From: an uncultured Chloroflexia bacterium
GTDB taxonomy: Bacteria > Chloroflexota > Limnocylindria > Limnocylindrales > CSP1-4
Assembly (NCBI GenBank): GCA_963749705.1
Contig: CAVVNQ010000003.1
Coordinates: 256,001 to 320,000 of the forward strand
Length of the DNA stretch: 64,000 nucleotides
Reading direction: 5' to 3'
Shown: piece after piece, positions 46,244-59,517 of the stretch
Layout: each line of letters starts with the position of its first letter
Numbering within the stretch: the first letter of the stretch is position 1
Position numbers and translations under genes: made by a program
The notes under the pieces: generated by a model
What the model was told of the DNA's origin: nothing
The model's input: the letters and a program-made list of their open reading frames with translations, nothing else
Databases searched by the model: none

Positions 46244-46791
46244 GCCTCGAGCCGCGCCCGCCGGGGAATCCGATCACCGGTCGGGCGCGGCAACCTCACC
46301 GGACCCCACGCTGGCAGACGACGCCCTTGGCACGGCGCGACCTTCGTCTGCGCGCCCGCCACCCCGATCGGCTCTTGCGCGCAGATCCGCGGCCTTGCGG
46401 GCCTTGGCTGACAGGATCTCGCCCGGACGCAGTTGCGTGCATCCTGGAAGCCGATGACTAGGATGTACTCGTGTGCTCCGAGAACGCATTCACCCCCCTG
46501 AGCTTGAGTGTCTGACCCGCCATATACCGTGACCTCAGAACCCCGGAGGTCGCGGGGGCCTGCGTCCGGGCCCAGAGCGATGTCTGGACCATCTTCCAAG
46601 AAGCGCCATGGAGCCACCGCCACTGCCGGCTCCCATGAATGGGGTGGGATCCGGCGATCCCCGCATGGTAGGAAGTGTCCGAGTTCCATCTTCGGGAGCG
46701 AGCGAATCCATCAGATCTCCAGCGTAGCGGTCTCGAGGCTCCGGCCGTGACCGGCAACTTCAGATCTGCCTTCTACTACCCCGGCCCACCG

Positions 46792-46845
46792 TTGACGCTC
46801 TGCGAGCGGCGGTCTAGACTCAATCCCGACGAAATCGGTCGGATT
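46792..46845 (+). promoter_or_regulatory. Promoter TTGACG-17-TAGACT followed by an IscR type-1-like operator
   Basis: AATCCCGAC-GAAATCG-GTCGGATT at 46822-46845 covers the presumed +1 of the rrf2-suf operon. Confidence 0.75.
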
Positions 46846-46919
46846 TCCCCGGCGCGGCGGCCTCCTCGCCGCGGGCGTCCCCCCGGGGAACCTCCGACCG
46901 GACCCGAGAGGACCGAACC

Positions 46920-47465
46920 CTGACCACCCGCGCGACCTTCCACGGATCCGGCGCCGTCGCCTTCAGCACGAAGGGCGAGTACGGCGTGCGGCTGATGGTC
47001 CAGCTGGGCCGCCGGTATGGCACCGGCCCCGCCAGCCTGGCCGAGATCGCGCTGGACGAGGACCTGCCGCGCGCCTACCTGGAGCAGCTCGTCACGAGCC
47101 TCCGGGACGCCGGCCTGGTCGTGTCCACGCGCGGCGCGCGCGGCGGCTACGAGCTTGGCTCCCCGCCCGACAGCATCCGGATGAGCGACGTCCTGCGCGC
47201 GCTGGAAGGCCCGATCGCCCCGATGATCTGCGCGTCGGACGAGCACGAGCACACCACCTGCGACCGCTCGGCCCGATGCACGGTCAACGTCCTGTGGGTG
47301 GCGGTCCGCGACGCGATCTCGGGCACGCTCGACGCCATGACGCTGGCGGACCTCGTCCCCGCCCGGCACATCACCCTCGACCCCCGCGACCCGGCCGCGT
47401 CCCCGGCCGTGGTCGCGCCGGGGTCGGCCCCCAGTACCGCAACCCTCCAGGGAGCCTCTTCGTGA
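46920..47465 (+). CDS. Rrf2-family regulator (IscR/SufR-like)
   Basis: [33 protein letters not shown], three Cys; CTG start inferred. Confidence 0.88.
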
Positions 47466-48343
47466 CCGATACCAACGACCGCGAGCTCGTCATCTCGGAC
47501 CTTCGGGTCGCGCCGATCGCGCACCCGGAGACGGAGATCCTCCAGGGGATCAACCTCACGATCCGCAAGGGCGAGACCCACGCGATCATGGGTCCCAACG
47601 GCTCCGGCAAGACGACCCTCGCCTACGCGCTCATGGGTCACCCCGCCTACGTCGTCAAGAGCGGCGAGGTCACCTGGAAGGGCCGCAACCTGCTGGCGCT
47701 GTCCCCGGACAAGCGGTCCCGCCTCGGGCTGTTCCTCGCCTTCCAGTACCCGACCGCGATCCCCGGGCTGAGCGTGGCGAGCTTCGTCCGCAGCGCGCTC
47801 AACGCCAAGCTCCAGGGCATCGACAAGGACCCCGACATCGATCCCACCGACAGCATCAAGGGCGGGGTCTCGATGCTCGAGTTCCGGCGCAAGATGCGGG
47901 AGAAGATGGCGCTCCTCAAGATGGAGGACAGCTTCGCCAGCCGGTACGTCAACGATGGCTTCTCGGGCGGTGAGAAGAAGCGGCTGGAGATGCTCCAGAT
48001 GGCGATGCTCGAGCCCGAGTTCGCGGTGCTCGACGAGACAGACTCGGGGCTGGACATCGACGCCCTGCGCATCGTGGCCGAGGGCGTCAACGCGATGCTC
48101 AACCCGGAGATGGGCGTTCTCCTGATCACGCACTACCAGCGGCTGCTCAACTACATCACGCCCGATTACGTCCACGTGCTGGCGGCCGGCCGGATCGTGA
48201 CCTCCGGTGGCAAGGAGCTCGCGATCCGACTCGAGGACGAGGGCTACGGCCCGATCCTGCGCGAGAACGGCCTGGCGACCGACGTTCCCGACGAGGCGCT
48301 CGCCATCCCCCTGGAGCCCGAGGTCGCCGGCGCGAGCCGGTAG
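47462..48343 (+). CDS. sufC: Fe-S assembly ATPase SufC
   Basis: [50 protein letters not shown]. Confidence 0.95.
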
Positions 48344-48349
48344 CGCGCG

Positions 48350-49673
48350 ATGACCACCGAGGCACGCCCGCTCGCGGCCGCCGCTGTCGGGGACGCGACC
48401 CCGTCCCCGTCAATCGGCGCGCACCACTGCGGCACTGGACGCCGCGCGGATCCGACGCGACTTTCCGATCCTCGACCAGCAGGTCCACGGCCACCGGTTC
48501 GCCTACCTGGACTCCGCGGCGACCTCGCAGAAGCCGCTCGCGGTGATCGAGGCGGTGGATGCCTACTACCGGGAGTACAACGCCAACGTCCATCGCGGGA
48601 TCTACACCATCGGCGAGCGGGCGACGGCCGCCTACGAGGCGGCGCGCGTCAAGGTCGCGACGCTGATCGGGGCGCCGGACGCGCACGAGGTCGTGAACGT
48701 CCGCAACGCGACCGAGGCGATCAACCTCGTGGCGTACTCGTGGGGGCGCAAGAACATCGGCCGCGGCGACGTGATCGTGCTGACCGAGATGGAGCACCAC
48801 GCCAACCTCGTCCCGTGGCAGCTGCTCGCCCAGGAGAAGGACGCGGACCTCGAGTTCATCCCGATCACCGACGACGGCGTCCTCCGCCAGGACGTGTTCG
48901 AGGTGCTGTTGCGGCTCAAGCCCAAGCTGGTCGCGTTCGCGCACGTGTCGAACACGCTGGGCACGATCAACCCCGTCGAGGACATGACCCGCCGGGCGCA
49001 CGAGGCCGGCGCGCTGGTCCTGATCGACGGCGCCCAGGCGGTGCCGCACCTGCCCGTCGACGTGGCCGCGATCGGCTGCGACTTCTACGTGTTCAGCGGA
49101 CACAAGGCGCTCGCGCCCATGGGCTCCGGCGCGCTGTGGGCCCGCCGCGAGCTGCTCGAGGCGATGCCGCCGTTCCTGGGCGGCGGGGAGATGATCCGCG
49201 AGGTCCACCTGCGCCGATCGGAATGGAACACCGTCCCGCACAAGTTCGAGGCCGGCACGCCGGACGTGTCCGCCGCCATCGGTCTCGGCGTCGCCGCCGA
49301 CTACCTGCTCGAGCTGGGCATGGACAAGGTGTTCGCGCACGAGCAGGCGCTCGCGGCGTACGCCCTCGATGTCCTGGCGCGCGAGGTCCCGGGGATCGAG
49401 CTGTACGGGCCGCCCGCAGCGCAGCGGGTCGGCGTCGTGTCGTTCAACCTGCCGGGTGTCCACCCGCATGACGTGGCGCAGGTGCTGGACCGCTTCGGGG
49501 TGGCCGTCCGCGCCGGGCACCACTGCACGATGCCGCTCCACGAGCGGCTGGATCTCACGGCGACGGCGCGGGCCTCGTTCCAGGTGTACACGACGCGGGA
49601 CGACATCGACGCGCTCGTCAACGGCCTTCGCGAGGTGGTCAAGCTCTTCGGCGCTCCACCGTCGCTATCCTGA
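48350..49673 (+). CDS. sufS: Cysteine desulfurase SufS (frame break between ATG 48350 and the conserved frame starting about 48435)
   Basis: IRRDFPIL, YLDSAATSQKP, NVHRG, FSGHK, RAGHHC; the conserved frame has no ATG/GTG/TTG upstream of LDAARIRRDFP. Confidence 0.9.
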
Positions 49674-49680
49674 GCACGGC

Positions 49681-50076
49681 ATGGACGACCTGTACCGCGA
49701 CTACATCCTCGAGCACTATCGGCGACCCCACAACTTCGGGGTCCTCGACGAGCCGTCCGCGACCCATGAGGGCGCGAACCCGTTGTGCGGCGACCGGATC
49801 ACGATGCAGCTGACGATCCGCGACGGCGTCGTCGAGGACATCGGGTTCACCGGCCGCGGCTGCGCGATCAGCCAGGCCTCGGCCTCCCTGCTGACCGACG
49901 AGATCAAGGGCAAGCCCGTGGCCGACGCGGCCGACTTCGGTGCGGCCGACCTGCTCGACCTGCTCGGGATCGACATCAGTCCGGCCAGGCTCAAGTGCGC
50001 GATGCTCAGCTTCGACTCCCTGCAACACCTGCTCGACGAGGTCGGCGCGAAGCCGCTCGTGAAGGAGCAGGGCTGA
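49681..50076 (+). CDS. sufU: SufU/NifU-like sulfur-transfer protein
   Basis: LYRDYILEHYRRPHNFG, NPLCGD, GCAISQASAS, RLKCAML. Confidence 0.93.
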   Translation: MDDLYRDYILEHYRRPHNFGVLDEPSATHEGANPLCGDRITMQLTIRDGVVEDIGFTGRGCAISQASASLLTDEIKGKPVADAADFGAADLLDLLGIDISPARLKCAMLSFDSLQHLLDEVGAKPLVKEQG

Positions 50077-50108
50077 TGCGCCGCTGCGCGTGTCGCCGGC
50101 CGGCCTGA
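50076..50108 (+). CDS. Putative Cys-containing leader peptide MRRCACRRPA
   Basis: TGATG overlap with the sufU stop; RCAC core shared with the sORF at 19457; precedes moeZ-cysO-cysM-mec. Confidence 0.6.
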   Translation: MRRCACRRPA

Positions 50109-50220
50109 CGCCGGCACGTCCCCGGCATCCGTCGGCGCGAACCACGCGCACCCGACCGGGAGCCCCCGACCCATCGTCCCCGCCCCGCCGTTCCACCGGC
50201 GGCCCGTCGTCCATCGGAGC

Positions 50221-51426
50221 ATGAACTCTCCAATGCCCAAGACCTATGCCGAGCTCCTCCGCGAGGCCCGCAGCGAGATCCGTGAGGTCACGCCGGCCGA
50301 GACGGATGCGCTGCGCCAGCGCGGCGGCATCGCGCTGATCGACGTCCGCGAGACGTCCGAGTGGGAGCAGGGCCACCTGCCCGGCGCGACCCACGTGTCC
50401 AAGAGCTACCTCGAGCAGGAGATCGAGGCCGCGGTCCCGAAGCGGGACACGCCCGTGGTCCTGTACTGCGCAGGTGGCATTCGCTCGCTGTTCGCCGGCC
50501 AGACGCTGGCGGCGATGGGCTACACGGATGTCGCCTCGATGACCGGCGGCTTCCAGGCCTGGAAGGGGCAGGGTCTCGACTGGACCCAGCCGGTCGTGCT
50601 CAGCGACCAGCAGAAGCTGCGCTACAGCCGTCACCTGCTGATCCCCGAGGTGGGGTCGGCCGGCCAGGCGAGGCTGCTGGGCTCGAAGGCGCTGCTGATC
50701 GGCGCCGGCGGGCTCGGGTCGCCGGCCTCGCTGTACCTCGCGGCCGCGGGCGTGGGCACGATCGGGATCGTCGACTTCGACGTCGTCGACCTGTCGAACC
50801 TCCAGCGCCAGGTCGTCCACACCAGCGACCGCGTGGGGGAGAAGAAGGTCGAGTCCGCACGCAGGACGCTGACCGCGCTCAATCCCGACGTGACCGTGGT
50901 CGCCCACGAGGAGATGCTGGTCGCGGACAACGTGGAGCGGATCATCGCCGGCTACGACGTCATCCTCGACGGCACCGACACGTTCGAGACGCGGTACATC
51001 CTCAACGACGCCGCGGTGGCGGCCGGGATCCCCGTCGTCCACGCGTCGGTGTTCCGGTTCGAGGGCCAGCTCACGACCTTCGTCCCGTACGAGGGCCCGT
51101 GCTACCGCTGCCTGTACCCGACGCCGCCGCCGCCCGAGCTCGCCCCCGGCTGCTCGGTGGCCGGGGTGCTGGGCGTGGTACCCGGGATCATGGGACTCCT
51201 CCAGGCGAACGAGGTGCTCAAGCTGCTGCTGGGGATCGGCGAGACGCTGGCCGGCCGGCTGCTGCTGTTCGACGCCCTCGAGACCGAGTTCACGGAGCTC
51301 AAGCTGCGGCGCGATCCGCACTGCCCGGTCTGCTCGGACGAGGCCCGGGCCGCGCGGGACGCGGGGACGCCGATCGCGGCTCCGGCCTACGGCGAGGGCG
51401 TGTTCACGCTCGGAGGATCGAGGTGA
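50221..51426 (+). CDS. moeZ: Rhodanese-ThiF/MoeB fusion (MoeZ-like sulfur-carrier activating enzyme)
   Basis: N-terminal DVRE..EW..GHLPG/YCAGGIRS; RYSRHLL, GAGGLGSP, SNLQRQ, CYRC, CPVC. Confidence 0.92.
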   Translation: MNSPMPKTYAELLREARSEIREVTPAETDALRQRGGIALIDVRETSEWEQGHLPGATHVSKSYLEQEIEAAVPKRDTPVVLYCAGGIRSLFAGQTLAAMGYTDVASMTGGFQAWKGQGLDWTQPVVLSDQQKLRYSRHLLIPEVGSAGQARLLGSKALLIGAGGLGSPASLYLAAAGVGTIGIVDFDVVDLSNLQRQVVHTSDRVGEKKVESARRTLTALNPDVTVVAHEEMLVADNVERIIAGYDVILDGTDTFETRYILNDAAVAAGIPVVHASVFRFEGQLTTFVPYEGPCYRCLYPTPPPPELAPGCSVAGVLGVVPGIMGLLQANEVLKLLLGIGETLAGRLLLFDALETEFTELKLRRDPHCPVCSDEARAARDAGTPIAAPAYGEGVFTLGGSR

Positions 51427-51710
51427 GCACGGTCAAGTTTCCCGCCGTGCTCCGCGCGAACGTCGGCGGCGCGCGCGAGGTTGACGCCGCCGGGTCCACG
51501 ATCGGCGAGGTGCTCGACACGCTCGTGTCGACCTATCCGTCATTGCGCGACCAGCTGTTCACCGACGACGGCGAGCTCAACCGGTTCGTCAACGTGTACG
51601 TGAACGGGCAGGACGTGCGCTACCTCGACGGTCGCAGGACGGCGGTCGCCGAGTCGGACGAGGTCCGGCTGCTGCCCGCGATGGCCGGTGGAGCCGGCGA
51701 GGCGAGGTGA
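51423..51710 (+). CDS. cysO: Ubiquitin-like sulfur carrier (MoaD/ThiS/CysO) with GG masked by an AGEAR tail
   Basis: RFVNVYVNGQDVRYL, LPAMAGG-AGEAR*; GTGA overlap. Confidence 0.85.
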   Translation: MSTVKFPAVLRANVGGAREVDAAGSTIGEVLDTLVSTYPSLRDQLFTDDGELNRFVNVYVNGQDVRYLDGRRTAVAESDEVRLLPAMAGGAGEAR

Positions 51711-51726
51711 CGCCGGGCGCGGCGGG

Positions 51727-52722
51727 GTGACCGCCGCCGACCACATCCACGCGCAGGCGCATGACGCCGTCGAGCGCCACGGCGGACGGTACGAGTCGAT
51801 CCTCGACGCCGTCGGTCATACGCCGCTGGTCGCGATCCCGCGGATGAGCCCCAACCCGCGCGTGGCGATCTACGCAAAGCTCGAGATGTACAACCCGACG
51901 GGGTCCGTCAAGGACCGCGCCGCGAAGTACCTCGTCGAGGACCTCGAGCGGCGCGGGCTGCTCCAGCCGGACTCGATCATCCTCGAGCCGACGTCGGGGA
52001 ACACCGGGATCGCGCTGGCCATGATCGGGCGGCGCAAGGGATACCGGGTGGCGCTGGTCATGCCCGACAACGTGACGATGGAGCGCCGCCAGGTGGCCGC
52101 CCTGTTCGGCGCCGAGATCATCGACTCGCCCGGGCGCCTCGGGTCCAACGGGGCGATTGCGATGGCCAAGGAGCTGTGCGCGAGCGATCCCCGGTTCGTG
52201 ATGCCCTACCAGTACGGCAACCCGGCCAACCCGCTGGCGCACTACGAGACGACCGGGCCGGAGATCCTGGCCGACTGCCCGGAGATCGACGTGTTCGTGG
52301 CGGGGCTGGGGACGTCGGGGACGCTGATGGGCACCGGGCGGTATCTGCGCGAGCACAAGCCGGGGGTAAGGATCGTCGCCGCGGAGCCGCTCCCCGGGGA
52401 AAACGTGCAGGGCCTGCGGTCGCTCGAGGAAGGCTTCGTGCCCGAGATCCTCGACCCCGAGATGCTCGATGCGAAGTACCTCGTGTCGAACCGGGATGCG
52501 GTCGCAGCCCTGCGGGACCTGGTGTTCCGGGAGGGCGTGTTCGCGGGCCCGTCCTGCGGCGCGGTGCTGGTCGCCGCGGCGCGCGAGGCCCGCACGATGG
52601 AGTCCGGCACGATCGTGGCGCTCCTGCCCGACGGCGGCTGGAAGTACCTCTCGGCCGGCACGTTCGAGCGCGCCCTGGACGAGATGGAGGACGATTTCGA
52701 GGGCGGGGTCAACTGGTGGTGA
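51727..52722 (+). CDS. cysM: PLP-dependent cysteine synthase (CysM-like)
   Basis: NPTGSVKDR, EPTSGNTGI, GLGTSGT, PDGGWKYLS; context with cysO and mec. Confidence 0.9.
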   Translation: MTAADHIHAQAHDAVERHGGRYESILDAVGHTPLVAIPRMSPNPRVAIYAKLEMYNPTGSVKDRAAKYLVEDLERRGLLQPDSIILEPTSGNTGIALAMIGRRKGYRVALVMPDNVTMERRQVAALFGAEIIDSPGRLGSNGAIAMAKELCASDPRFVMPYQYGNPANPLAHYETTGPEILADCPEIDVFVAGLGTSGTLMGTGRYLREHKPGVRIVAAEPLPGENVQGLRSLEEGFVPEILDPEMLDAKYLVSNRDAVAALRDLVFREGVFAGPSCGAVLVAAAREARTMESGTIVALLPDGGWKYLSAGTFERALDEMEDDFEGGVNWW

Positions 52723-53183
52723 GCCCGTCGTCTTCGCCTCAGGGTCCCTCGTCTGTCCGCCTGCCCCGCCGGATCGCGAATGCGATCGTGGACCAGGCGC
52801 GAGCCGAGTACCCGAACGAGGCGTGCGGGCTGGTGGTTGGGACCGCGCCGGCGGCCGACAACGGGACTCCGGTCCGCTACGAACCGTGCCGGAACAAGGC
52901 TGCGTCGCCGTATCGCTACGAGATCCACCCCGACGACCTGCTCCGGATCACCGTTGCGACGGACGATGCGGATGAGGTGTTCTGGGCGATCGTCCACTCG
53001 CACGTGAAGTCGCCGGCGGTGCCGTCCCCGACCGACATCGGGCTCGCGTTCTATCCCGACGCGCTGTACATCCTCGTGTCGCTCAGCGCGATCGAGGCCG
53101 AACCCGCCACGGGTGCCCCGTCCCTGCGTGCGTGGCGGATCGTGAACGGCGAGACGCACGAGGTCGGCCTGGAGGTCGTATGA
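52719..53183 (+). CDS. mec: JAMM/MPN+ (M67) peptidase Mec
   Basis: YPNEACGL, HSH...A.PS.TD JAMM motif. Confidence 0.9.
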   Translation: MSPSSSPQGPSSVRLPRRIANAIVDQARAEYPNEACGLVVGTAPAADNGTPVRYEPCRNKAASPYRYEIHPDDLLRITVATDDADEVFWAIVHSHVKSPAVPSPTDIGLAFYPDALYILVSLSAIEAEPATGAPSLRAWRIVNGETHEVGLEVV

Positions 53184-53741
53184 GCGTCGACCGGGACGCG
53201 TCCCACCCCGACCTGCCCGAGGGCGTCGCGGCGCTGACCGGGGCCCGTGTGCGACTTGTCCCGGCGACCGACGAGCACATCCCGGCGTTCACCAAGCTGT
53301 TCTCCGACCCGACCGTTCGACGCTGGTGGCCGGCACCCGATCCCGCCGCCGAAGCGCGCGAGCACGTGGCACCGGAGGCCAAGCGCGCCGTATGGGCGAT
53401 CGAGGCCGATTCCCAGGTCGTCGGCCTCATCCAGGCGTGGGAGGAGACCGAGCCTGGCTACCGGCACGCGGGGATCGACCTCTCGCTGCTCGGATCGGCG
53501 CAGGGGCTTGGGCTCGGCCCCGATGCCGTCCGAACGGTCGCCCGTTGGCTGTTCGAGCGTCCGACGGCATCACCGGATCACCATCGATCCCAGCGCGACC
53601 AACGACCACGCGATCCGGGCCTACGACAAGGTCGGGTTCCGGCCCGTCGGCGTGATGCGTCGCTATGAGCGCGGCCCGGACGGCACCTGGCACGACGGCC
53701 TCCTGATGGACCTGCTCCCCGAGGACCTGGCTGATGACTGA
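53180..53741 (+). pseudogene. AAC(6')-like GNAT acetyltransferase with an apparent frameshift near 53557
   Basis: Frame 1 to YRHAGIDL..WLFE; continues in another frame RRHHRITIDP..NDHAIRAYDKVGF..WHDGLLMDLL. Confidence 0.75.
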
Positions 53742-54198
53742 GCCGCTCGATCGCGCCCGTGAACGCATCGACCTCGGCCGCAAACCGGTCGACCGCGGCC
53801 GTCTCGGATGGCTCGCGTTCGGGCTCCTGGCGTTCGGGGGCGGAAGCCTGCTCGGCTGGAACGGCTCGCTGCTCGAGGCGCTGGCGACACCGCCCGCCCT
53901 CGTCCGGGCGGGCCTCGTGGGCGCCGCGGTCGTCGTCGGGCTCGCCCTGGTCGCACGCGCCGTGCAATCGCTCGAGACCGGTCGCGGCCGGGCGACCGGC
54001 GAGCTCGGCGCCCGGGACCTGGCCGCCCTCGTCCGTGGCGCGCGATACGTCTTCCTCGCGGTCGCGGCCTTCGCCGCAGCCATCGGCTGGCTCGTCGGCC
54101 ACCCGCTTCCGTTCGTCGTTGCGCTCGTCATCGCCGGTGTCGACGTGCTCGAGACGTCCTTCCTGATGCTCGTGGTCACCCTGCGTCGCGATCTCTAG
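53734..54198 (+). CDS. Hypothetical 4-TM membrane protein
   Basis: Hydrophobic helices; overlaps the previous gene's end; GC3 bias. Confidence 0.7.
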   Translation: MTEPLDRARERIDLGRKPVDRGRLGWLAFGLLAFGGGSLLGWNGSLLEALATPPALVRAGLVGAAVVVGLALVARAVQSLETGRGRATGELGARDLAALVRGARYVFLAVAAFAAAIGWLVGHPLPFVVALVIAGVDVLETSFLMLVVTLRRDL

Positions 54199-55045: not shown

Positions 55046-57443
55046 ATGAGCGCCGGTGACACCCGCCCGACATCGACCCCTGCGGGACCACTTTCCGAGG
55101 ACGAGCTGCGCCGGATCGACGCCTACTGGCGCGCCGCCAACTACCTCTCCGTCGGTCAGATCTACCTGCTGGACAACCCGCTGCTTCGCGAACCCCTGGG
55201 ACCCCGGCACGTGAAGCCCAGGCTGCTGGGCCACTGGGGGACGACACCGGGCCTGAACTTCATCTACGCCCACATGAACCGGGTGATCCGGAACTGGGAC
55301 CTGGACGCGATCTACATCACCGGGCCCGGGCACGGCGGCCCCGCGATCGTGGCCAATGCCTATCTCGAGGGCACGTACAGCGAGGTCTACCCCAGCATCA
55401 CCCGGGACGAGGACGGAATGCGGCGGCTGTTCCGCCAGTTCTCGTTCCCGGGCGGGATCCCGAGCCACGTCGCGCCCGAGACGCCGGGATCGATCCACGA
55501 GGGGGGCGAGCTCGGGTACGCGCTGTCGCACGCCTACGGCGCCGCGTTCGACAACCCGGACCTCGTCGTGTGCGCGGTGGTCGGCGACGGGGAGGCGGAG
55601 ACGGGGCCGCTGGCCACGAGCTGGCACTCCAACAAGTTCGTGAACCCGGTCCGCGACGGAGCGGTCCTGCCCATCCTCCACCTGAACGGCTACAAGATCG
55701 CCAACCCGACGGTGCTCGCGCGCATCCCGCAGGCGGAGCTCCAGGCCCTCATGGAGGGCTACGGCCACAAGCCGTACTTCGTCGAGGGCGACGACCCGGC
55801 CAGCGTCCACCAGCAGCTCGCGGCGACGATGGACACGGTGATCGAGGAGATCCAGGCGATCCAGAAGGCGGCCCGCGAGGGTGGCGTCACGGAGCGCCCG
55901 CGGTGGCCGATGATCGTGTTCAAGACGCCCAAGGGCTGGACGGGCCCGAAGGAGGTCGACGGCAAGCCGGTCGAGGGGACGTGGCGGTCGCACCAGGTCC
56001 CGATGGCCGAGGTTCGGACGAACGAGGACCACCGCGCCATCCTCGAGGCGTGGCTGCGGAGCTACCACCCCGAGGAGCTGTTCGACGAAACCGGCGCGCT
56101 GATCCCCGAGCTCGCATCGCTGCCGCCCAAGAGCTACCGGCGGATGAGCGCCAACCCCGTCGCCAACGGCGGCGAGCTGCTCCGCGACCTGGTCCTGCCG
56201 GACTTCCGCGACTACGCCGTCGACGTGCCGTCACCCGGCGCGACGACCTCCGAGGCGACCCGGGTCCTCGGCACCTACCTGCGCGACGTGATCGACCACA
56301 ACCGTGAGACGTTCCGCGTGTTCGGACCCGACGAGACGCAGTCGAACCGGCTGGGAGCCGTGTTCGAGGCGACCGACCGCCAGTTCGACGCCGAGATCCT
56401 GCCCACCGACGAGTCCCAGGCGCCGGAAGGCCGGGTGATGGAGGTCCTCTCGGAGCACCAGTGCCAGGGCTGGCTCGAGGGCTACCTGCTCACCGGCCGA
56501 CACGGCCTGTTCAACTGCTACGAGGCGTTCATCCACATCGTCGACTCGATGTTCAACCAGCATGCGAAGTGGCTCAAGGTGACCCGGGACATCCCGTGGC
56601 GGCGCCCGATCGCCTCGCTCAACTACGTGCTCAGCTCGCTCGTCTGGCGGCAGGACCACAACGGGTTCTCGCACCAGGACCCGGGCTTCATCGATCACGT
56701 GGTCAACAAGAAGGCCGACGTCATCCGCGTCTACCTGCCGCCGGACGCGAACACGCTCCTGTCGGTCGGGGATCACTGCCTGCGCAGCCGCCACTACGTC
56801 AACGTGATCGTCGCCGGCAAGCAGCCGGCCCCGAACTGGCTGGCCGATGGACCAGGCGATCCTCCACTGCACCCGCGGGATCGGGATCTGGGACTGGGCG
56901 AGCAACGACCAGGGCGGCGAGCCGGACGTCGTCATCGCATGCGCCGGGGACATCCCGACCCTCGAGGCGCTGGCCGCCGTCGACCTGATCCGCACCCACC
57001 TGCCGGAGCTCAAGGTCCGGTTCATCAACGTCGTGGACCTGATGCGGCTCCAGGACGAGAAGGAGCACCCGCACGGGCTGTCCAACGCCGAGTTCGATGC
57101 GCTGTTCACGACGGACAAGCCGATCGTGTTCGCCTATCACGGCTACCCGTGGCTGATCCACCGCCTCACCTACCGCCGGACGAACCATGCCAACCTGCAC
57201 GTCCGCGGCTACAAGGAGGAAGGGACGACGACCACGCCGTTCGACATGGTGATGCTCAACGACCTCGACCGGTTCCACCTCGTGATCGACGCGATCGACC
57301 GGGTTCCGGGTCTCGGACCAAGGGCCGGCCACGTGCGCCAGCTGATGGTCGACAAGCGGATCGAGGCCCGGGCGTACACCCGGCTCGAGGGCGAGGACGC
57401 GCCCGAGATCGCGAACTGGGCCTGGCCGCAGCCGGCCGGCTGA
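55046..57443 (+). CDS. xfp: Xylulose-5P/fructose-6P phosphoketolase (apparent 1-nt frameshift near 56845)
   Basis: [41 protein letters not shown]; C-terminus ([15 protein letters not shown]) lies in ORF 56847-57443. Confidence 0.92.
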
Positions 57444-58571
57444 ATGACGCGATCAGCCCTTCCCGGCGGCGGGCGGATCCTCGTCGTCAACGCGGGATCG
57501 AGCAGCCTCAAGCTGCGGGTCCTCGACGATGGCGACGAGCTCGTGGGGTCCGCGGACCTGCCCGCGCCGAGGGGATCGACCGACGCGGCGGAGGTCGAGG
57601 CTGCGATCCGCGGCTTCGGTGCGGTCGCGGCGGTGGGCCATCGGATCGTGCACGGTGGGACGGTGTTCTCGAGCCCGGTCCGGATCGATGCCCGGGTGAT
57701 CGCCCGCCTCGAGGCCCTCACGGACCTCGCGCCGCTCCACCAGCCAAAGTCGCTCGCGGCCCTCGCGGCGGTCAGCGCGGTCATCCCCGACGTGCCCGCC
57801 GTCGCGTGCTTCGACACCGCGTTCCACGCCACGCTGCCGGCGGCCGCGTCCACGTACGCCCTGCCGCCCGAATGGCGCAAGCGCTGGGACCTGCGGCGAT
57901 ACGGGTTCCACGGTCTGTCGCACGCCTATGCGACGCGTCGCGCCGCACAGCTCCTCGGACGACCGGTCGCGGACCTCCGCCTGGTCACCTGCCACCTCGG
58001 CGCGGGTGCCTCGCTGGCCGCGGTCGCGGGCGGGCGCTCGGTCGACACGACGATGGGCTTCACACCGCTCGAGGGCCTGGTGATGGCGACCCGGTCCGGG
58101 AGCGTCGATCCGGGCCTCGTGCTGTGGCTTGCCGAGCACGTCGGGATGCCGCCGGCCGAGCTCGCCGCGACGCTCGAGCGCCGGTCGGGGCTGCTGGGGC
58201 TGGCCGGGACCTCGGACATGCGGGTGATCCTCGCCGGCGCCGCCGCCGGAACGCCAGATGCGGCCCTCGCGCTCGACGTCTACGTCCACCGGCTGCGGGG
58301 GTCGATCGCGGCGATGACCGCAGCGTTGGGCGGGCTCGATGCGCTCGTGTTCACCGGCGGCGTCGGCGAGCGGGCGCCGCGGGTCCGCGCGATGGCGGCC
58401 GACGGGCTCGGCTTCCTCGGCGTCACCCTCGATCCATCACGCAACGACGAAGGCTCCGCCGATCGCGAGATCTCGCCCGACGGCGCGGGCGTCCGGGTGC
58501 TCGTCCTCGAGGCGCGCGAGGACCTCGAGATCGCGCACGAGGTGCGCGACGTGCTCGGCGGGCAGGGTTAG
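57444..58571 (+). CDS. ackA: Acetate kinase
   Basis: [55 protein letters not shown]. Confidence 0.93.
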
Positions 58572-58611
58572 CCGGGGATCGGCGCCGGGAGGAGCGTTCA
58601 GCGGTGGTCGA

Positions 58612-59517
58612 TCAGCCCTTCCGCTCGCGAACCACCAGCACCGAGCACGGAGCATGGAGCAGCACGTTGCGGGCCACGCTGCCCAGCAACAGCCTCGCGA
58701 GCCCGGTATGGCCGCGGGTGCCCATCACGATCGTGCCGATCCCGCGCTCGCCGGCAAACCGCACGATCTCGCCCGCGGCGTCACCCTCGAGCACGACCGG
58801 CTGCGCGTCCATGCCCAGGCCGCCCAGGCGTCCGGCCGCGGTGTCGGCCTCGATCCTGGTCTCCTCGCGAGCCTCGTCGACCGACCGCGTGTAGGAGGCG
58901 AGCACCTGGTCGTACAGCCCGGGCGTGAACCCGGCCGCGACGGGCACGGCGGTCTCGGCCACGGTCAGCACCGTCAGCGCGCGATGCTCGAAGATCGGCC
59001 ACGTGGCCAGCACTTCCTCGGCCGCGCGCGCTGAGCTCGAGCCGTCGTCGGCGAACGCGATCGGCCCCAGCGTCGCGCCGCGAGCGACGAGCACCGGGCA
59101 CGGGCCGTGATCGACGACCTCGGACGCCGTGCTGCCAAGGACCATCGTCGCGATCGTGCTGTGCCCCCGGCTGCCGACGACGATGAGGTCGGCCTCCATC
59201 CCCCGCCCCTCATCGACGATCGCGCTGGCGGGGCGGCCGCGAAGCAGGAACCCCTCCACCTTCGCGCCCGTTCGTTCGAGCGTCCGCTCGGCCCGGTCGA
59301 TCGCCTCGCGATGGTGGCGGGCCTCGACCTCCTCCTCGGTCTCGTGGGAGCGCGGTCCGGGCCCCGAGGACGCCCACGCGAGCGCCAGGACGTCGGCATA
59401 CGGCTGCTGGACGGAGACCACGCGGACGAGCGAGCCCGCGGGGAGCATGAAGCTGGCGACGAGCTCGGTCGCCCGGTCGCTGGAGACCGAGCCATCGACG
59501 GCAAGCAGGATTCGCAT
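58612..59517 (-). CDS. Tandem universal stress protein
   Basis: [21 protein letters not shown], second [16 protein letters not shown]. Confidence 0.92.

Follow-up and report, generated by a model that had tools for sequence, protein, structure and literature searches.

The junction between sufU and moeZ in the 64,000-nt stretch of DNA analyzed here (the window) carries a 33-nt reading frame that we consider, with a probability of roughly 55%, to be a real, translated regulatory micro-ORF, which would act as an intra-operonic ribosome sensor of Cys-tRNA charging and tune the genes downstream. The micro-ORF (50076..50108; like every feature given with coordinates below, on the + strand) encodes MRRCACRRPA in ten codons and ends with TGA at 50106-50108. 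As the initial annotation had described, it starts within the sufU stop codon (TGATG, with the sufU TGA at 50074-50076 and the ATG at 50076-50078) and encodes R-C-A-C; the Cys-x-Cys stretch TGC GCG TGT occupies 50085..50093, with TGC at 50085-50087 and TGT at 50091-50093. The expectation that TGT would be rare at this G+C content was borne out, as it makes up 8.9% of the 3322 Cys codons in 1188 long ORFs of the genome. Cys accounts for 22% of the micro-ORF sense codons (2/9) versus 0.60% genome-wide, and the genome has one tRNA-Cys(GCA) gene. A Shine-Dalgarno-like AGGAG (50063..50067) lies within the final sufU codons, 8 nt 5′ of the micro-ORF ATG. At the genomic G+C content of 71%, a lone short ORF is uninformative (the same reading frame is already open from 49785), and the case beyond chance therefore rests on comparison with relatives. 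The region is single-copy in the genome with up to three mismatches allowed, which rules out a repeat or mobile element. A 44-aa + strand ORF (50090-50224) and three minus-strand ORFs overlap it; a Pfam search with these ORFs gave zero matches, and the 44-aa frame was rejected as a gene because indels after the micro-ORF stop break it in relatives.

The genes around the micro-ORF encode, in order, an Rrf2-family regulator (46986..47465; best NCBIfam match CymR, below the cut-off), the SufC ATPase (47276..48343 for the ORF as listed, the true start being probably later; TIGR01978, 316 bits versus a cut-off of 213), the cysteine desulfurase SufS (48543..49673, with a start that may be further upstream; TIGR01979, 512 bits versus a cut-off of 475), the sulfur-transfer protein SufU (NifU_N/SufU; 49681..50076 from an inferred MDDLY start; TIGR01994, 114 bits versus a cut-off of 92.5), a MoeZ/MoeB-type adenylyltransferase with an N-terminal rhodanese domain (50233..51426; PRK08762, 554 bits versus a cut-off of 449), a CysO-like small sulfur carrier of the ThiS/MoaD type (51429..51710, start approximate), a CysK/CysM-family cysteine synthase (51688..52722 for the ORF as listed; TIGR01136, 329.5 bits, just below the cut-off of 344), and a JAB/Mec-type metalloprotease (52719..53183, start approximate). 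The span originally assigned to the element implied a moeZ start at 50221; relatives lack that ATG and all align from the later one, so the ATG at 50233 (MPKTY...) is most likely the start, with GGAG at 50216..50219, 13 nt upstream, as its Shine-Dalgarno sequence. A sigma-70-like promoter match (TTGACG-17-TAGACT, 46792..46820) upstream of the Rrf2 gene is the sole one in 46500-53800 (1 versus 0.2 expected) and is likely the operon promoter. The scan of the same interval found no promoter-like site in or near the sufU-moeZ spacer and 0 terminator-like sites. The lack of a promoter-like site in the spacer and the AGGAG 8 nt upstream agree with the earlier view that the element is intra-operonic and stop-coupled rather than leaderless, and the stop/start overlap, the embedded Shine-Dalgarno sequence and the operon context likewise fit the proposed re-initiation after sufU.

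In the 88%-complete assembly, moeZ-cysO-cysM-mec are the sole cysteine-synthesis genes found; CysE gave no match above the cut-off, and neither PAPS reductase nor sulfite reductase was found. A rho gene is present (Rho_RNA_bind match of 102.6 bits in a 609-aa open frame). A SufU-MoeZ read-through fusion was also considered, as the frame is open in the window; the spacer is a multiple of three in just 7 of 17 relatives, which argues that this open frame arose by chance, and the fusion was rejected. Six RNA runs contain merely 6-8% of the sampled words. Four of the runs yielded short contigs, mostly of other organisms' ThiF domains, with 50104-50304 almost uncovered, and are uninformative on transcription here. 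A single low-depth, 158-nt RNA-library contig from a relative spans 49969-50115 and has a 6-nt insertion after 50076 that keeps the micro-ORF frame.

Related records come from metagenome-assembled genomes (MAGs) labelled Chloroflexota or Ca. Limnocylindrales. Among 29 sufU-moeZ junctions fetched by flanking similarity alone, with the micro-ORF sequence left unused, 18 contain the micro-ORF, and in these 18 pattern-independent loci it is the best-conserved stretch of the junction, its mean pairwise identity being 0.93, compared with 0.80 at the start of moeZ and 0.62 over the final 45 nt of sufU. A genus census found it in 32 of 70 genomes (31 free-standing, 1 fused; five matches with two mismatches and no assigned locus were left out), and six genera carry it among 401 family genomes sampled. 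In a global pattern scan, 43 of 57 matches lay between sufU and moeZ and the other 14 outside that context. The consensus reads M-x-R-C-x-C-x-x-P-A-stop. Across 32 distinct micro-ORF DNA sequences, R3, C4, C6, P9 and A10 are nearly invariant, whereas codon 5 takes seven forms (A, S, V, L, T and R) and codons 2, 7 and 8 take nine, nine and six forms. The start codon is ATG in 31 forms and GTG in one, and 30 forms end in TGA and two in TAG; in both of the latter, GCC-TGA has become GCA-TAG, so that Ala and stop are kept. All 52 aligned ORFs are 33 nt long, and indels begin directly past the stop codon. The conservation check called for in the initial annotation thus came out in favor of the ORF, with frame, start, stop and both Cys codons kept across six genera.

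The Cys codons themselves behave unusually. All 32 distinct sequences have TGC at codon 4 and TGT at codon 6, and mismatch-tolerant scans of genus and family genomes turned up no change in either codon. Because TGC, TGT and CCGGCC were fixed in the pattern used to retrieve most of the sequences, part of the invariance in the full set is built in; the loci obtained without the pattern number 18. Synonymous variation, anticipated for a conserved CxC ORF, is therefore seen elsewhere in the ORF (codons 2, 3, 5, 7 and 10) but not in the Cys codons, where the absence of third-position variation hints at a nucleotide-level constraint of unexplained cause. A third Cys has been gained at codon 2, 3 or 7, depending on the lineage, giving MRCCSC, MRRCACC and MCRCAC; the first two of these have adjacent Cys, and 29 of the 32 distinct forms do not.

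The coupling to sufU is also widespread. TGATG overlaps occur in 47 of 52 aligned loci and an ATGA overlap in one, and a GGAG or GAGG at 7-13 nt upstream is present in 38 of the 47 micro-ORF loci versus 2 of the 11 that lack the ORF. In two genomes of another genus the ORF lies 17 or 29 nt past the sufU stop and has its own start, and a 60%-complete MAG has a sufU frame that continues into ...GRCACRQPA-TAG, although this fusion may reflect misassembly. sufU invariably precedes the module, also in the one genome (G418) where a peroxiredoxin gene takes the place of moeZ, an observation that is a counterpoint to cysteine genes being the target. In relatives without the module the sufU-moeZ distance is -43 to +62 nt, so the module inserts an untranslated gap, which would give a sensor something to gate.

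This gap begins in a hairpin, H1 (GCCGGC, loop CTGAC, GCCGGC; 50099..50115, -14.1 kcal/mol), whose loop holds the micro-ORF stop codon and which extends to 50097-50118 in the window. Its cells are 99.3% paired over 51 distinct sequences, with one compensatory change from C-G to U-A (L129), and its distance from UGU is identical in 52 of 52 relatives. The loop varies from 3 to 7 nt, an arm spacing that suits an RNA loop, unlike a fixed protein site, and we rejected on these grounds the idea that the H1 palindrome is a DNA operator bound by the Rrf2 protein. A Pro-to-Leu variant of codon 9 carries a compensatory change in the 3′ arm of H1, so conservation of Pro-Ala looks like a hairpin constraint, and these codons may be conserved solely as the 5′ arm. 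The untranslated spacer that follows (50109..50232) is C-rich and G-poor, as had been noted (61 C versus 33 G over 124 nt; C/G 1.82). Among 119,792 genome windows it ranks within the top 0.16% for C-richness, and a comparison with 162 co-directional intergenic regions, crudely called, puts it at the 99th percentile or higher; C/G is 1.3-2.3 in 47 of 47 relatives, where sequence identity is merely 0.32-0.40. With a folding z score of -0.92 versus shuffles, the spacer as a whole is not unusually structured. Near its 3′ end lies a second hairpin, H2 (CCGCCG, TTCCAC, CGGCGG; 50185..50202, -12.8 kcal/mol, z -2.8), which a conserved box, CCCGTCGTCC (50203..50212), abuts on the 3′ side. A stem of at least 5 bp adjoins the box in 44 of 52 relatives, and its arms covary by clade (CCGCCG/CGGCGG, CUGGC/GCCAG, CUGACGG/UCGUCAG and CCGUCGG/CCGACGG). 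H2 and the box occur without the micro-ORF in some relatives, the box being found in such loci as L019, L025 and L029. Rfam covariance models gave just two chance-level matches in 49000-51500 (E values of 4.6 and 5.7), both within moeZ.

We then consider RNA pairing as the means by which the micro-ORF could act. The initial annotation had pointed to the exact complementarity of TGCGCGTG (50085-50092), in the Cys-Ala-Cys stretch, and CACGCGCA (50143-50150); both are present in the window, and their pairing is part of the window's own MFE fold. However, a functional role for this pairing did not survive comparison: a complement of at least 8 nt to the Cys stretch occurs in 1 of 52 relatives and one of at least 7 nt in 3 of 52, the mean longest downstream complement is 4.73 nt versus 4.84 nt in shuffles, and the middle hairpin that contains CACGCGCA (50129..50160) is conserved neither in sequence nor in form. 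The antisense pairing is thus at chance level across relatives and specific to the window, and was rejected as a mechanism. Folding with and without the ribosome footprint, a check proposed with the original idea, gave no consistent sign of a switch: the moeZ Shine-Dalgarno sequence is unpaired with a probability of 0.30 in the free RNA versus 0.32 and 0.30 with a stalled ribosome. Sequestration of this Shine-Dalgarno sequence, as in Ms5788A, is rejected on present evidence, since complementarity is no better than chance and the modeled accessibility is unchanged by masking.

Other helices fared no better as switches. An extension of H1 into the Cys codons is 55-68% paired with zero covariation and was rejected family-wide; no consistent partner for a freed 3′ arm of H1 was found across relatives, nor any conserved pair of alternative helices at the junction. 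A long-range helix, P0 (50074-50086 with 50197-50209), joins the sufU stop and micro-ORF start to the 3′ arm of H2 and the box. It is 83.5% paired alone and 88.8% over P0 plus H1, and is register-specific, with at most 55% pairing when slid. Its covariation does not exceed that of shuffles, and it forms in 20 of 52 MFE folds versus 22% with a shuffled 5′ segment (a weak enrichment); we retain it only as a modeled lead.

In the mechanism that we propose, ribosomes leaving sufU, or recruited by GGAG in the final sufU codons, would start at the overlapping AUG and decode UGC and then the rare UGU with the single tRNA-Cys of the cell. When charged tRNA-Cys is ample, the ribosome would reach the UGA in the H1 loop and depart, H1 would refold, and about 125 nt of C-rich RNA would lie bare 5′ of moeZ. 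When charged tRNA-Cys is scarce, the ribosome would wait at the Cys codons. With a footprint of 26 nt (PMC13236596) centered on the codon, a wait at UGC would leave H1 almost intact and a wait at UGU would cover its entire 5′ arm. The level of moeZ-cysO-cysM-mec expression would then follow from how far the micro-ORF is occupied and from the state of H1, separately from that of the upstream suf genes. The observations behind this scheme are the conservation pattern of the ORF, H1 and H2, the composition of the spacer and the presence of Rho; translation of the micro-ORF, stalling at its Cys codons, and both the direction of the output and its route are inferred. Among the routes, relief of Rho-dependent polarity across the C-rich spacer appears most likely, while an effect on moeZ initiation or on mRNA stability is possible. 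As a counterpoint to a Cys sensor, there are just two Cys codons and they are not adjacent. As a counterpoint to the Rho route, a ribosome stalled 15 nt 5′ of the stop codon does not obviously hide the C-rich spacer. As stalling generally promotes Rho polarity, it is uncertain in which direction expression would respond.

Given the near-invariance of R3, C4, C6, P9 and A10, and the UGA (30 of 32 forms) placed in a hairpin loop just before the C-rich spacer, the micro-ORF could instead encode a nascent-peptide sensor, in which R-C-x-C ... P-A, on sensing a ligand or a metal or thiol state, would halt the ribosome at UGA or close to it; as for TnaC or CruR, a ribosome arrested over H1 and the start of the spacer would block Rho, whose gene the genome has. 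We regard this as unlikely. Two forms end in UAG, Leu is tolerated in place of P9 when the hairpin is compensated, a RAPP-like arrest motif is absent, and positions 2, 5, 7 and 8 vary freely; moreover, the independent acquisition of an extra Cys on three occasions, at codons 2, 3 and 7, is a better fit to a codon counter than to a peptide of defined shape. The invariance of C-x-C would also suit a peptide that functions in its own right, such as a CxC peptide with a thiol or metal-binding role alongside SufU or MoeZ, and one MAG has these residues as a C-terminal extension of SufU. However, the product would be only ten residues long, with four of them varying freely between charge classes, and the fusion rests on one 60%-complete MAG, so we consider a functional peptide very improbable.

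The zero third-position variation in the Cys codons invites a reading in which the RNA alone matters: H1, as an intercistronic hairpin, and the sequence next to it would stabilize, process or end the sufCSU part of the transcript, and the ORF would be a by-product. H1 is the best-supported structure at the junction and has a compensatory change, the last three ORF codons form its 5′ arm, and some relatives have H2 and the box without the ORF. Conservation nevertheless reaches 23 nt upstream of H1, in codon phase, with a hypervariable triplet flanked by invariant triplets. A start codon (ATG or GTG) and a stop codon (TGA or TAG, the latter with a synonymous Ala change) are preserved, and 33 nt remain free of indels while the H1 loop past the stop varies from 3 to 7 nt. 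The extension of H1 into the Cys codons is unsupported (55-68% paired) and Rfam gave no match, and we consider an RNA-only element unlikely. Much the same low probability attaches to an action directed mainly upstream, in which a ribosome waiting for Cys-tRNA covers the sufU stop, ribosomes in consequence queue on sufU, and, when cysteine is short, SufS/SufU output falls or the mRNA is cut there. SufS destroys cysteine, and the module always follows sufU, even with a peroxiredoxin gene next; the stop/start overlap also places the sufU stop inside the 26-nt footprint at codon 4. However, the two genomes with the ORF 17-29 nt past the sufU stop weaken the queueing geometry, and the conserved C-rich spacer would be left unexplained. 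We also speculated that one waiting ribosome could do both, covering the sufU stop and so restraining SufS/SufU while opening H1 and licensing MoeZ-CysO-CysM-Mec over Rho polarity. Such dual action is doubtful; if true, it would constitute a stop-start-coupled amino-acid sensor inside an operon that shifts the ratio of the transcript halves.

The micro-ORF read as a Cys-tRNA sensor has its nearest precedent in the leaderless polycysteine short ORFs of mycobacteria, such as Ms5788A and Rv0815A. According to Canestrari et al. 2020 (bioRxiv 10.1101/834739), these are likewise unannotated Cys-codon ORFs located 5′ of cysteine-metabolism genes on the same transcript in a high-G+C bacterial host, and waiting at their Cys codons is proposed to report charged tRNA-Cys. 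The same source describes them as leaderless and first in their transcript, with at least two and up to eight consecutive Cys, whereas the micro-ORF is intra-operonic, overlaps a stop codon, has a Shine-Dalgarno sequence, and carries C-x-C, with consecutive Cys in two variant forms only. In Ms5788A, as presented there, the Cys tract pairs with a downstream Shine-Dalgarno sequence; we did not find such pairing here, so this part of the suggested parallel does not hold. A word search found no mention of moeZ, cysO or cysM in the text of Canestrari et al. 2020. The micro-ORF therefore resembles this class in its location 5′ of cysteine-metabolism genes (MoeZ-type, ThiS/MoaD, CysK/M and JAB) but not in leaderless start, consecutive Cys or Shine-Dalgarno pairing. 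The parallel also fails as to the host, which belongs, with the relatives, to a lineage of Chloroflexota MAGs rather than to mycobacteria. Overall, the interpretation offered in the initial annotation is partly supported.

Upstream ORFs that gate Rho offer a second comparison. In the E. coli tnaC-tnaA operon, a leader ORF at the 5′ end of the transcript ends beside a C-rich Rho-loading region that a long untranslated spacer follows, and the position of the ribosome decides Rho access; TnaC senses free tryptophan through its nascent peptide and stalls at its own stop codon. The sufU-moeZ junction shares the short ORF next to a C-rich region and the long spacer, with a putative Rho dependence, and differs from tnaC in lying away from the transcript 5′ end and in the nascent-peptide sensing of tryptophan by the latter. 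The copper-responsive upstream ORF CruR (Bp2923) is a DUF2946 protein that uses CXXC to sense copper and RAPP for arrest (Roy et al. 2022, PMC9426467). It shares with the micro-ORF a Cys-pair motif encoded in an upstream frame, but the micro-ORF is a 10-mer that lacks RAPP and DUF2946. As in tnaC and CruR, C-rich, G-poor RNA follows the ORF and Rho is present, yet no known arrest motif (RAPP or the TnaC residues) is found, the peptide ending in R-R-P-A with a P9 that can be Leu. Classical amino-acid attenuators, such as trpL, hisL and the ilvB1 uORF of Mycobacterium tuberculosis, share a leader rich in codons for the amino acid made downstream and a sensor based on the ribosome footprint relative to the first hairpin (PMC13236596). 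The enrichment in regulatory codons is found here as well (2/9 sense codons are Cys), but the U-tract terminator and competing antiterminator of the trp and his type are both missing at the micro-ORF locus (0 terminator-like sites), and the element lies inside an operon. Translational coupling by overlapping stop and start codons (UGAUG, AUGA) is familiar from the E. coli trp genes; the overlap is shared, whereas the coupled frame here is a 10-codon, sensor-like ORF and not the next enzyme.

Leader-peptide sensing of amino acids is textbook biology. To our knowledge, however, known leader-peptide sensors sit at the 5′ end of the transcript, cysteine leader sensing is known solely from the mycobacterial leaderless polycysteine ORFs, and no leader-peptide control has been described in Chloroflexota; among the open-access papers searched, we found no description of a micro-ORF at the sufU-moeZ junction or in this phylum. 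The element described here differs from known cases in lying inside an operon, in being coupled to the preceding stop codon, and in having two non-adjacent Cys codons, and its host group consists of uncultured soil Chloroflexota (Ca. Limnocylindrales). Its small size (33 nt plus a single hairpin and a single C-rich spacer) makes it easy to mutate and well suited to asking how the position of a ribosome is communicated to Rho or to initiation downstream. If confirmed, it would mean that ribosome-based cysteine sensing arose independently beyond Actinomycetota, and that such sensors can split control of the halves of a transcript, here iron-sulfur-cluster assembly and cysteine synthesis.

The + strand junction between sufU and moeZ was read over 49800-50500, which places the sufU (NifU_N/SufU) stop codon TGA at 50074-50076 and the micro-ORF, ATG CGC CGC TGC GCG TGT CGC CGG CCG GCC TGA (MRRCACRRPA*), at 50076-50108, its ATG (50076-50078) sharing an A with the sufU stop (TGATG). 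On this re-reading the sequence features described in the initial annotation were present in the window. We assigned the moeZ start to the conserved ATG at 50233 (MPKTY...) rather than that at 50221, since the earlier ATG is absent from relatives; the gene (50233-51426, +; best NCBIfam match PRK08762) encodes a MoeZ-type enzyme with an N-terminal rhodanese and a C-terminal ThiF domain. Pfam and NCBIfam give the + strand order Rrf2 regulator, SufC, SufS, SufU, micro-ORF, MoeB/MoeZ-type adenylyltransferase with N-terminal rhodanese domain, ThiS/MoaD-type carrier, CysK/M-family synthase, JAB protease, and GNAT acetyltransferase. SufC, SufS, and SufU each exceed their own NCBIfam cut-off, and the best NCBIfam match of the Rrf2 regulator, CymR, falls under its cut-off. 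The sole promoter-like match in 46500-53800 lies ahead of the Rrf2 gene, and no terminator-like site was found in that interval. An Rfam search gave no match within the sufU-moeZ spacer, and Pfam gave none for the other ORFs spanning it on both strands. Elsewhere in the window, an ORF at 55046-58894, listed as 1282 aa, carries XFP_N and XFP phosphoketolase domains (residues 16-581), and its second half has no Pfam match.

A lone 10-codon ORF in a genome of 71% G+C is no evidence in itself, and the micro-ORF frame is already open from 49785; comparison with relatives carries the case. The sufU frame is likewise open past its TGA and in frame into moeZ (50074-50250), which looks like chance, the spacer length being a multiple of three in just 7 of 17 relatives. 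The 52 aligned junctions that we pooled hold 32 different versions of the micro-ORF at the DNA level, encoding 27 different peptides. Codon 4 is TGC and codon 6 is TGT in all 32 sequences, whereas codon 5 between them takes seven forms (GCG, GCC, TCG, GTG, CTG, ACG, and AGG) and codons 2, 7, and 8 take 9, 9, and 6 forms, respectively. The start is ATG in 31/32 and GTG in 1/32. Codon 3 is CGC in 30 sequences, with CGG and TGC once each; codon 9 is CCG in 31, with a single CTG; GCC fills codon 10 in 30 sequences and GCA in the other 2; and TGA ends 30 of the frames, TAG the other 2. Both TAG forms change GCC-TGA to GCA-TAG, three base changes that keep both the alanine and the stop. A third Cys occurs at codon 2, 3, or 7 in different lineages. 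The length is 33 nt in 52/52 junctions, and alignment gaps start in the column after the stop.

Most of the 52 junctions were fetched with a pattern fixing TGC, TGT, and CCGGCC, so that their invariance carries an ascertainment caveat. However, the Cys codons are equally invariant in 18 loci fetched by DNA similarity of the flanks, with the micro-ORF sequence unused, and scans allowing two mismatches or one returned variants in the start, stop, Pro, and other codons and none in either Cys codon; we therefore consider the Cys codons truly invariant. Among these 18 loci, mean pairwise identity is 0.93 in the micro-ORF, 0.62 in the last 45 nt of sufU, 0.80 in the first 45 nt of moeZ, and 0.43 in the 33 nt after the micro-ORF stop; across the first pooled set (47 unique loci) it is 0.88 for the micro-ORF and 0.50 for the sufU end. 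A GGAG/GAGG core stands 7 to 13 nt ahead of the start in 38/47 loci, as against 2/11 at the equivalent place in loci without the micro-ORF, which mostly have AAGGAC; given the relatedness of these genomes, this Shine-Dalgarno contrast is suggestive only. With a hypervariable triplet between invariant ones, start and stop kept through different codons, and a frame that is never broken, the pattern is, at the level of sequence, that of a translated frame in which the Cys codons are important. We put the probability that the micro-ORF is a selected, translated element at about 0.85.

When the genome of the window (G000) and those of 60 relatives were searched with the DNA of 49650-50650, 30 loci were recovered, 29 of which hold both sufU and moeZ. 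TGATG followed by a 10-codon ORF occurs in 17/29 of these junctions, an 18th (L018) being recognized on inspection; the remaining 11/29 have no such ORF, with the moeZ start -43 to +62 nt from the sufU stop. Within the genus, 32/70 genomes carry the micro-ORF after sufU, free-standing in 31 and fused in one (G081), in which sufU continues in frame through ...SGRCACRQPA-TAG. A family scan allowing one mismatch found the motif in 32/401 sampled genomes, after sufU in six genera (g1, g10, g16, g21, g25, and g50); another two genera gave matches of an unrelated kind. In the genome G332 the micro-ORF has a GTG start 17 nt past sufU and is followed by a split rhodanese and ThiF (L136, 3587-4794; separate genes of 96 and 306 aa, joined in the MoeZ of the window), a PALP enzyme, and a JAB protease. 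In G418 it lies 29 nt past sufU, and the next gene, at the contig end, encodes an AhpC/TSA peroxiredoxin; a ThiF-type MoeZ was not found in this 83% complete assembly, in which sufS and sufU are also separated by the insertion of a pair encoding a MazE-like antitoxin and a PIN-domain protein (L137, 3342-4033). Scanning all species genomes with TGATG-N6-TGC-N3-TGT-N6-CCGGCCTRR yielded 57 loci, 43 between sufU and moeZ homologs and 14 elsewhere (L072, L116, L124, L111, L104, and others). Several of the latter come from unrelated phyla (Nitrospinales, Chitinophagales, Myxococcales), where they encode M-V-P-C-T-C-S/R-x-P-A, and probably represent a motif internal to a protein. One genome, G085, has two near-identical sufU/micro-ORF/moeZ junctions on contigs C17 and C21 (L062, L063), which could be a strain mixture or a duplication. 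A single, low-depth 158-nt metatranscriptome contig of a relative, over 49969-50115, carries 6 additional nt immediately downstream of 50076, which would give the micro-ORF two extra in-frame codons.

Downstream, the micro-ORF stop sits in the loop of a predicted hairpin, H1 (GCCGGC/CTGAC/GCCGGC, 50099-50115, +; -14.1 kcal/mol), in which 99.3% of cells are paired among 51 distinct sequences. The locus L129 has changed on both sides of H1, the ORF codon CCG to CTG (Pro to Leu) and the 3' arm G to A, and the Pro-Ala codons may be conserved for the hairpin, not for the peptide. The H1 loop varies from 3 to 7 nt among relatives, which excludes a protein operator of fixed spacing; we found no support for pairing that would extend H1 as far as the Cys codons. 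The untranslated spacer (50109-50232, +) contains 61 C and 33 G. Its sequence is poorly conserved (identity 0.32-0.40) and its stability unremarkable (z = -0.92); the C excess is kept in 47/47 relatives (C/G 1.3-2.3), is in the top 0.16% of 119,792 windows of the G000 genome, and reaches at least the 99th percentile among 162 crudely called co-directional intergenic regions. Constrained composition with free sequence is the pattern expected of a Rho-loading region, and G000 encodes Rho in a long open frame.

A second predicted hairpin, H2 (50185-50202, +; -12.8 kcal/mol, z = -2.8), has a stem of at least 5 bp in 44/52 loci, with arm pairs that differ in a compensatory way from clade to clade. 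A conserved box, CCCGTCG(T/A)CC, follows 3' of H2, with GGAG some bases on. The moeZ GGAG-to-ATG spacing is 12 to 14 nt in all 52 aligned loci (window 50216-50233), long and oddly constant. In many loci of the window's clade, a mid-spacer CCGG(G)AGCC motif (50155-50166) resembles the moeZ Shine-Dalgarno region CCGGAGCAC and has no start codon after it. Three relatives without the micro-ORF (L019, L025, and L029) share H2, the box, and the Shine-Dalgarno sequence; this junction therefore looks older, with the micro-ORF, H1, and the C-rich spacer as a module placed ahead of it later.

Comparison with relatives thus gives good support to the core of the initial annotation, namely that a regulatory micro-ORF bearing Cys codons is translated and coupled to sufU; its proposed antisense pairing of TGCGCGTG (50085-50092) with the reverse complement CACGCGCA (50143-50150), both present in the window, proved window-specific and is refuted. 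We lean towards the view that the micro-ORF senses Cys-tRNA to regulate neighboring genes. The ribosome footprint is given as 26 nt centered on the decoded codon in one report (PMC13236596). A ribosome waiting at UGC would then cover about 50073-50099, including the sufU stop, and leave H1 nearly whole; at UGU it would cover about 50079-50105, including the entire 5' arm of H1, and at the stop it would span H1 completely. TGT stands 6 nt from the H1 arm in 52/52 sequences, and from this constancy and the modeled geometry we infer that ribosome position on the two Cys codons would map onto closed and open states of H1. The freed 3' arm of H1 had no consistent predicted partner. Masking the micro-ORF left the modeled accessibility of the moeZ Shine-Dalgarno sequence unchanged over 47 sequences (0.298 free, 0.319 at Cys4, 0.304 at Cys6, and 0.294 at the stop).

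How such a state would be read out is less certain. Rho polarity on the spacer is our favored, if doubtful, route, as C-richness is the sole feature of the spacer that all relatives retain: by default, Rho acting on the bare spacer would separate expression of the downstream genes from that of the suf genes, and ribosomes on the micro-ORF would modify this. Two alternatives have precedents. A stalled ribosome may hold the moeZ start region open through P0, a candidate long-range helix of UGAUG(N)GCCGCUG (50074-50086) with CGGCGGCCCGUCG (50197-50209); P0 is register-specific but only weakly enriched in MFE folds, and its covariation does not exceed that of shuffles. A stalled ribosome may otherwise protect the downstream RNA against 5'-to-3' decay. 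Since the module always follows sufU, a rival reading is that the micro-ORF acts on the upstream genes. The sign of the response, cysteine genes up at low Cys-tRNA, is assumed from physiology.

tnaC is a uORF-gated Rho attenuator whose stop adjoins C-rich RNA. The present layout resembles attenuators of this kind, including CruR (PMC9426467). The micro-ORF nevertheless lacks the arrest motifs of tnaC or CruR. The closest known system is the mycobacterial polycysteine leaderless sORF (bioRxiv 10.1101/834739), which shares Cys codons in an unannotated sORF ahead of cysteine genes and the ribosome as sensor. However, three defining traits of that family were tested and are absent here: a start without a leader, Cys codons in direct succession, and base-pairing between the Cys tract and the Shine-Dalgarno sequence. 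The micro-ORF would therefore work like this family without belonging to it. The mycobacterial comparison in the initial annotation is one of analogy, not kinship, the relatives being MAGs labeled uncultured Chloroflexia, Chloroflexota, or Candidatus Limnocylindrales, the last an order within Chloroflexota in the NCBI taxonomy. A search of open-access papers found no micro-ORF described at a sufU-moeZ junction or in Chloroflexota.

The micro-ORF sits at a seam between cysteine consumer and producer, with SufS, which consumes cysteine, upstream. As no CysE above cut-off, PAPS reductase, or sulfite reductase (NIR_SIR) was found in the 88% complete G000 assembly, the carrier-dependent CysO/CysM-type route of this operon may be the sole cysteine synthesis present.
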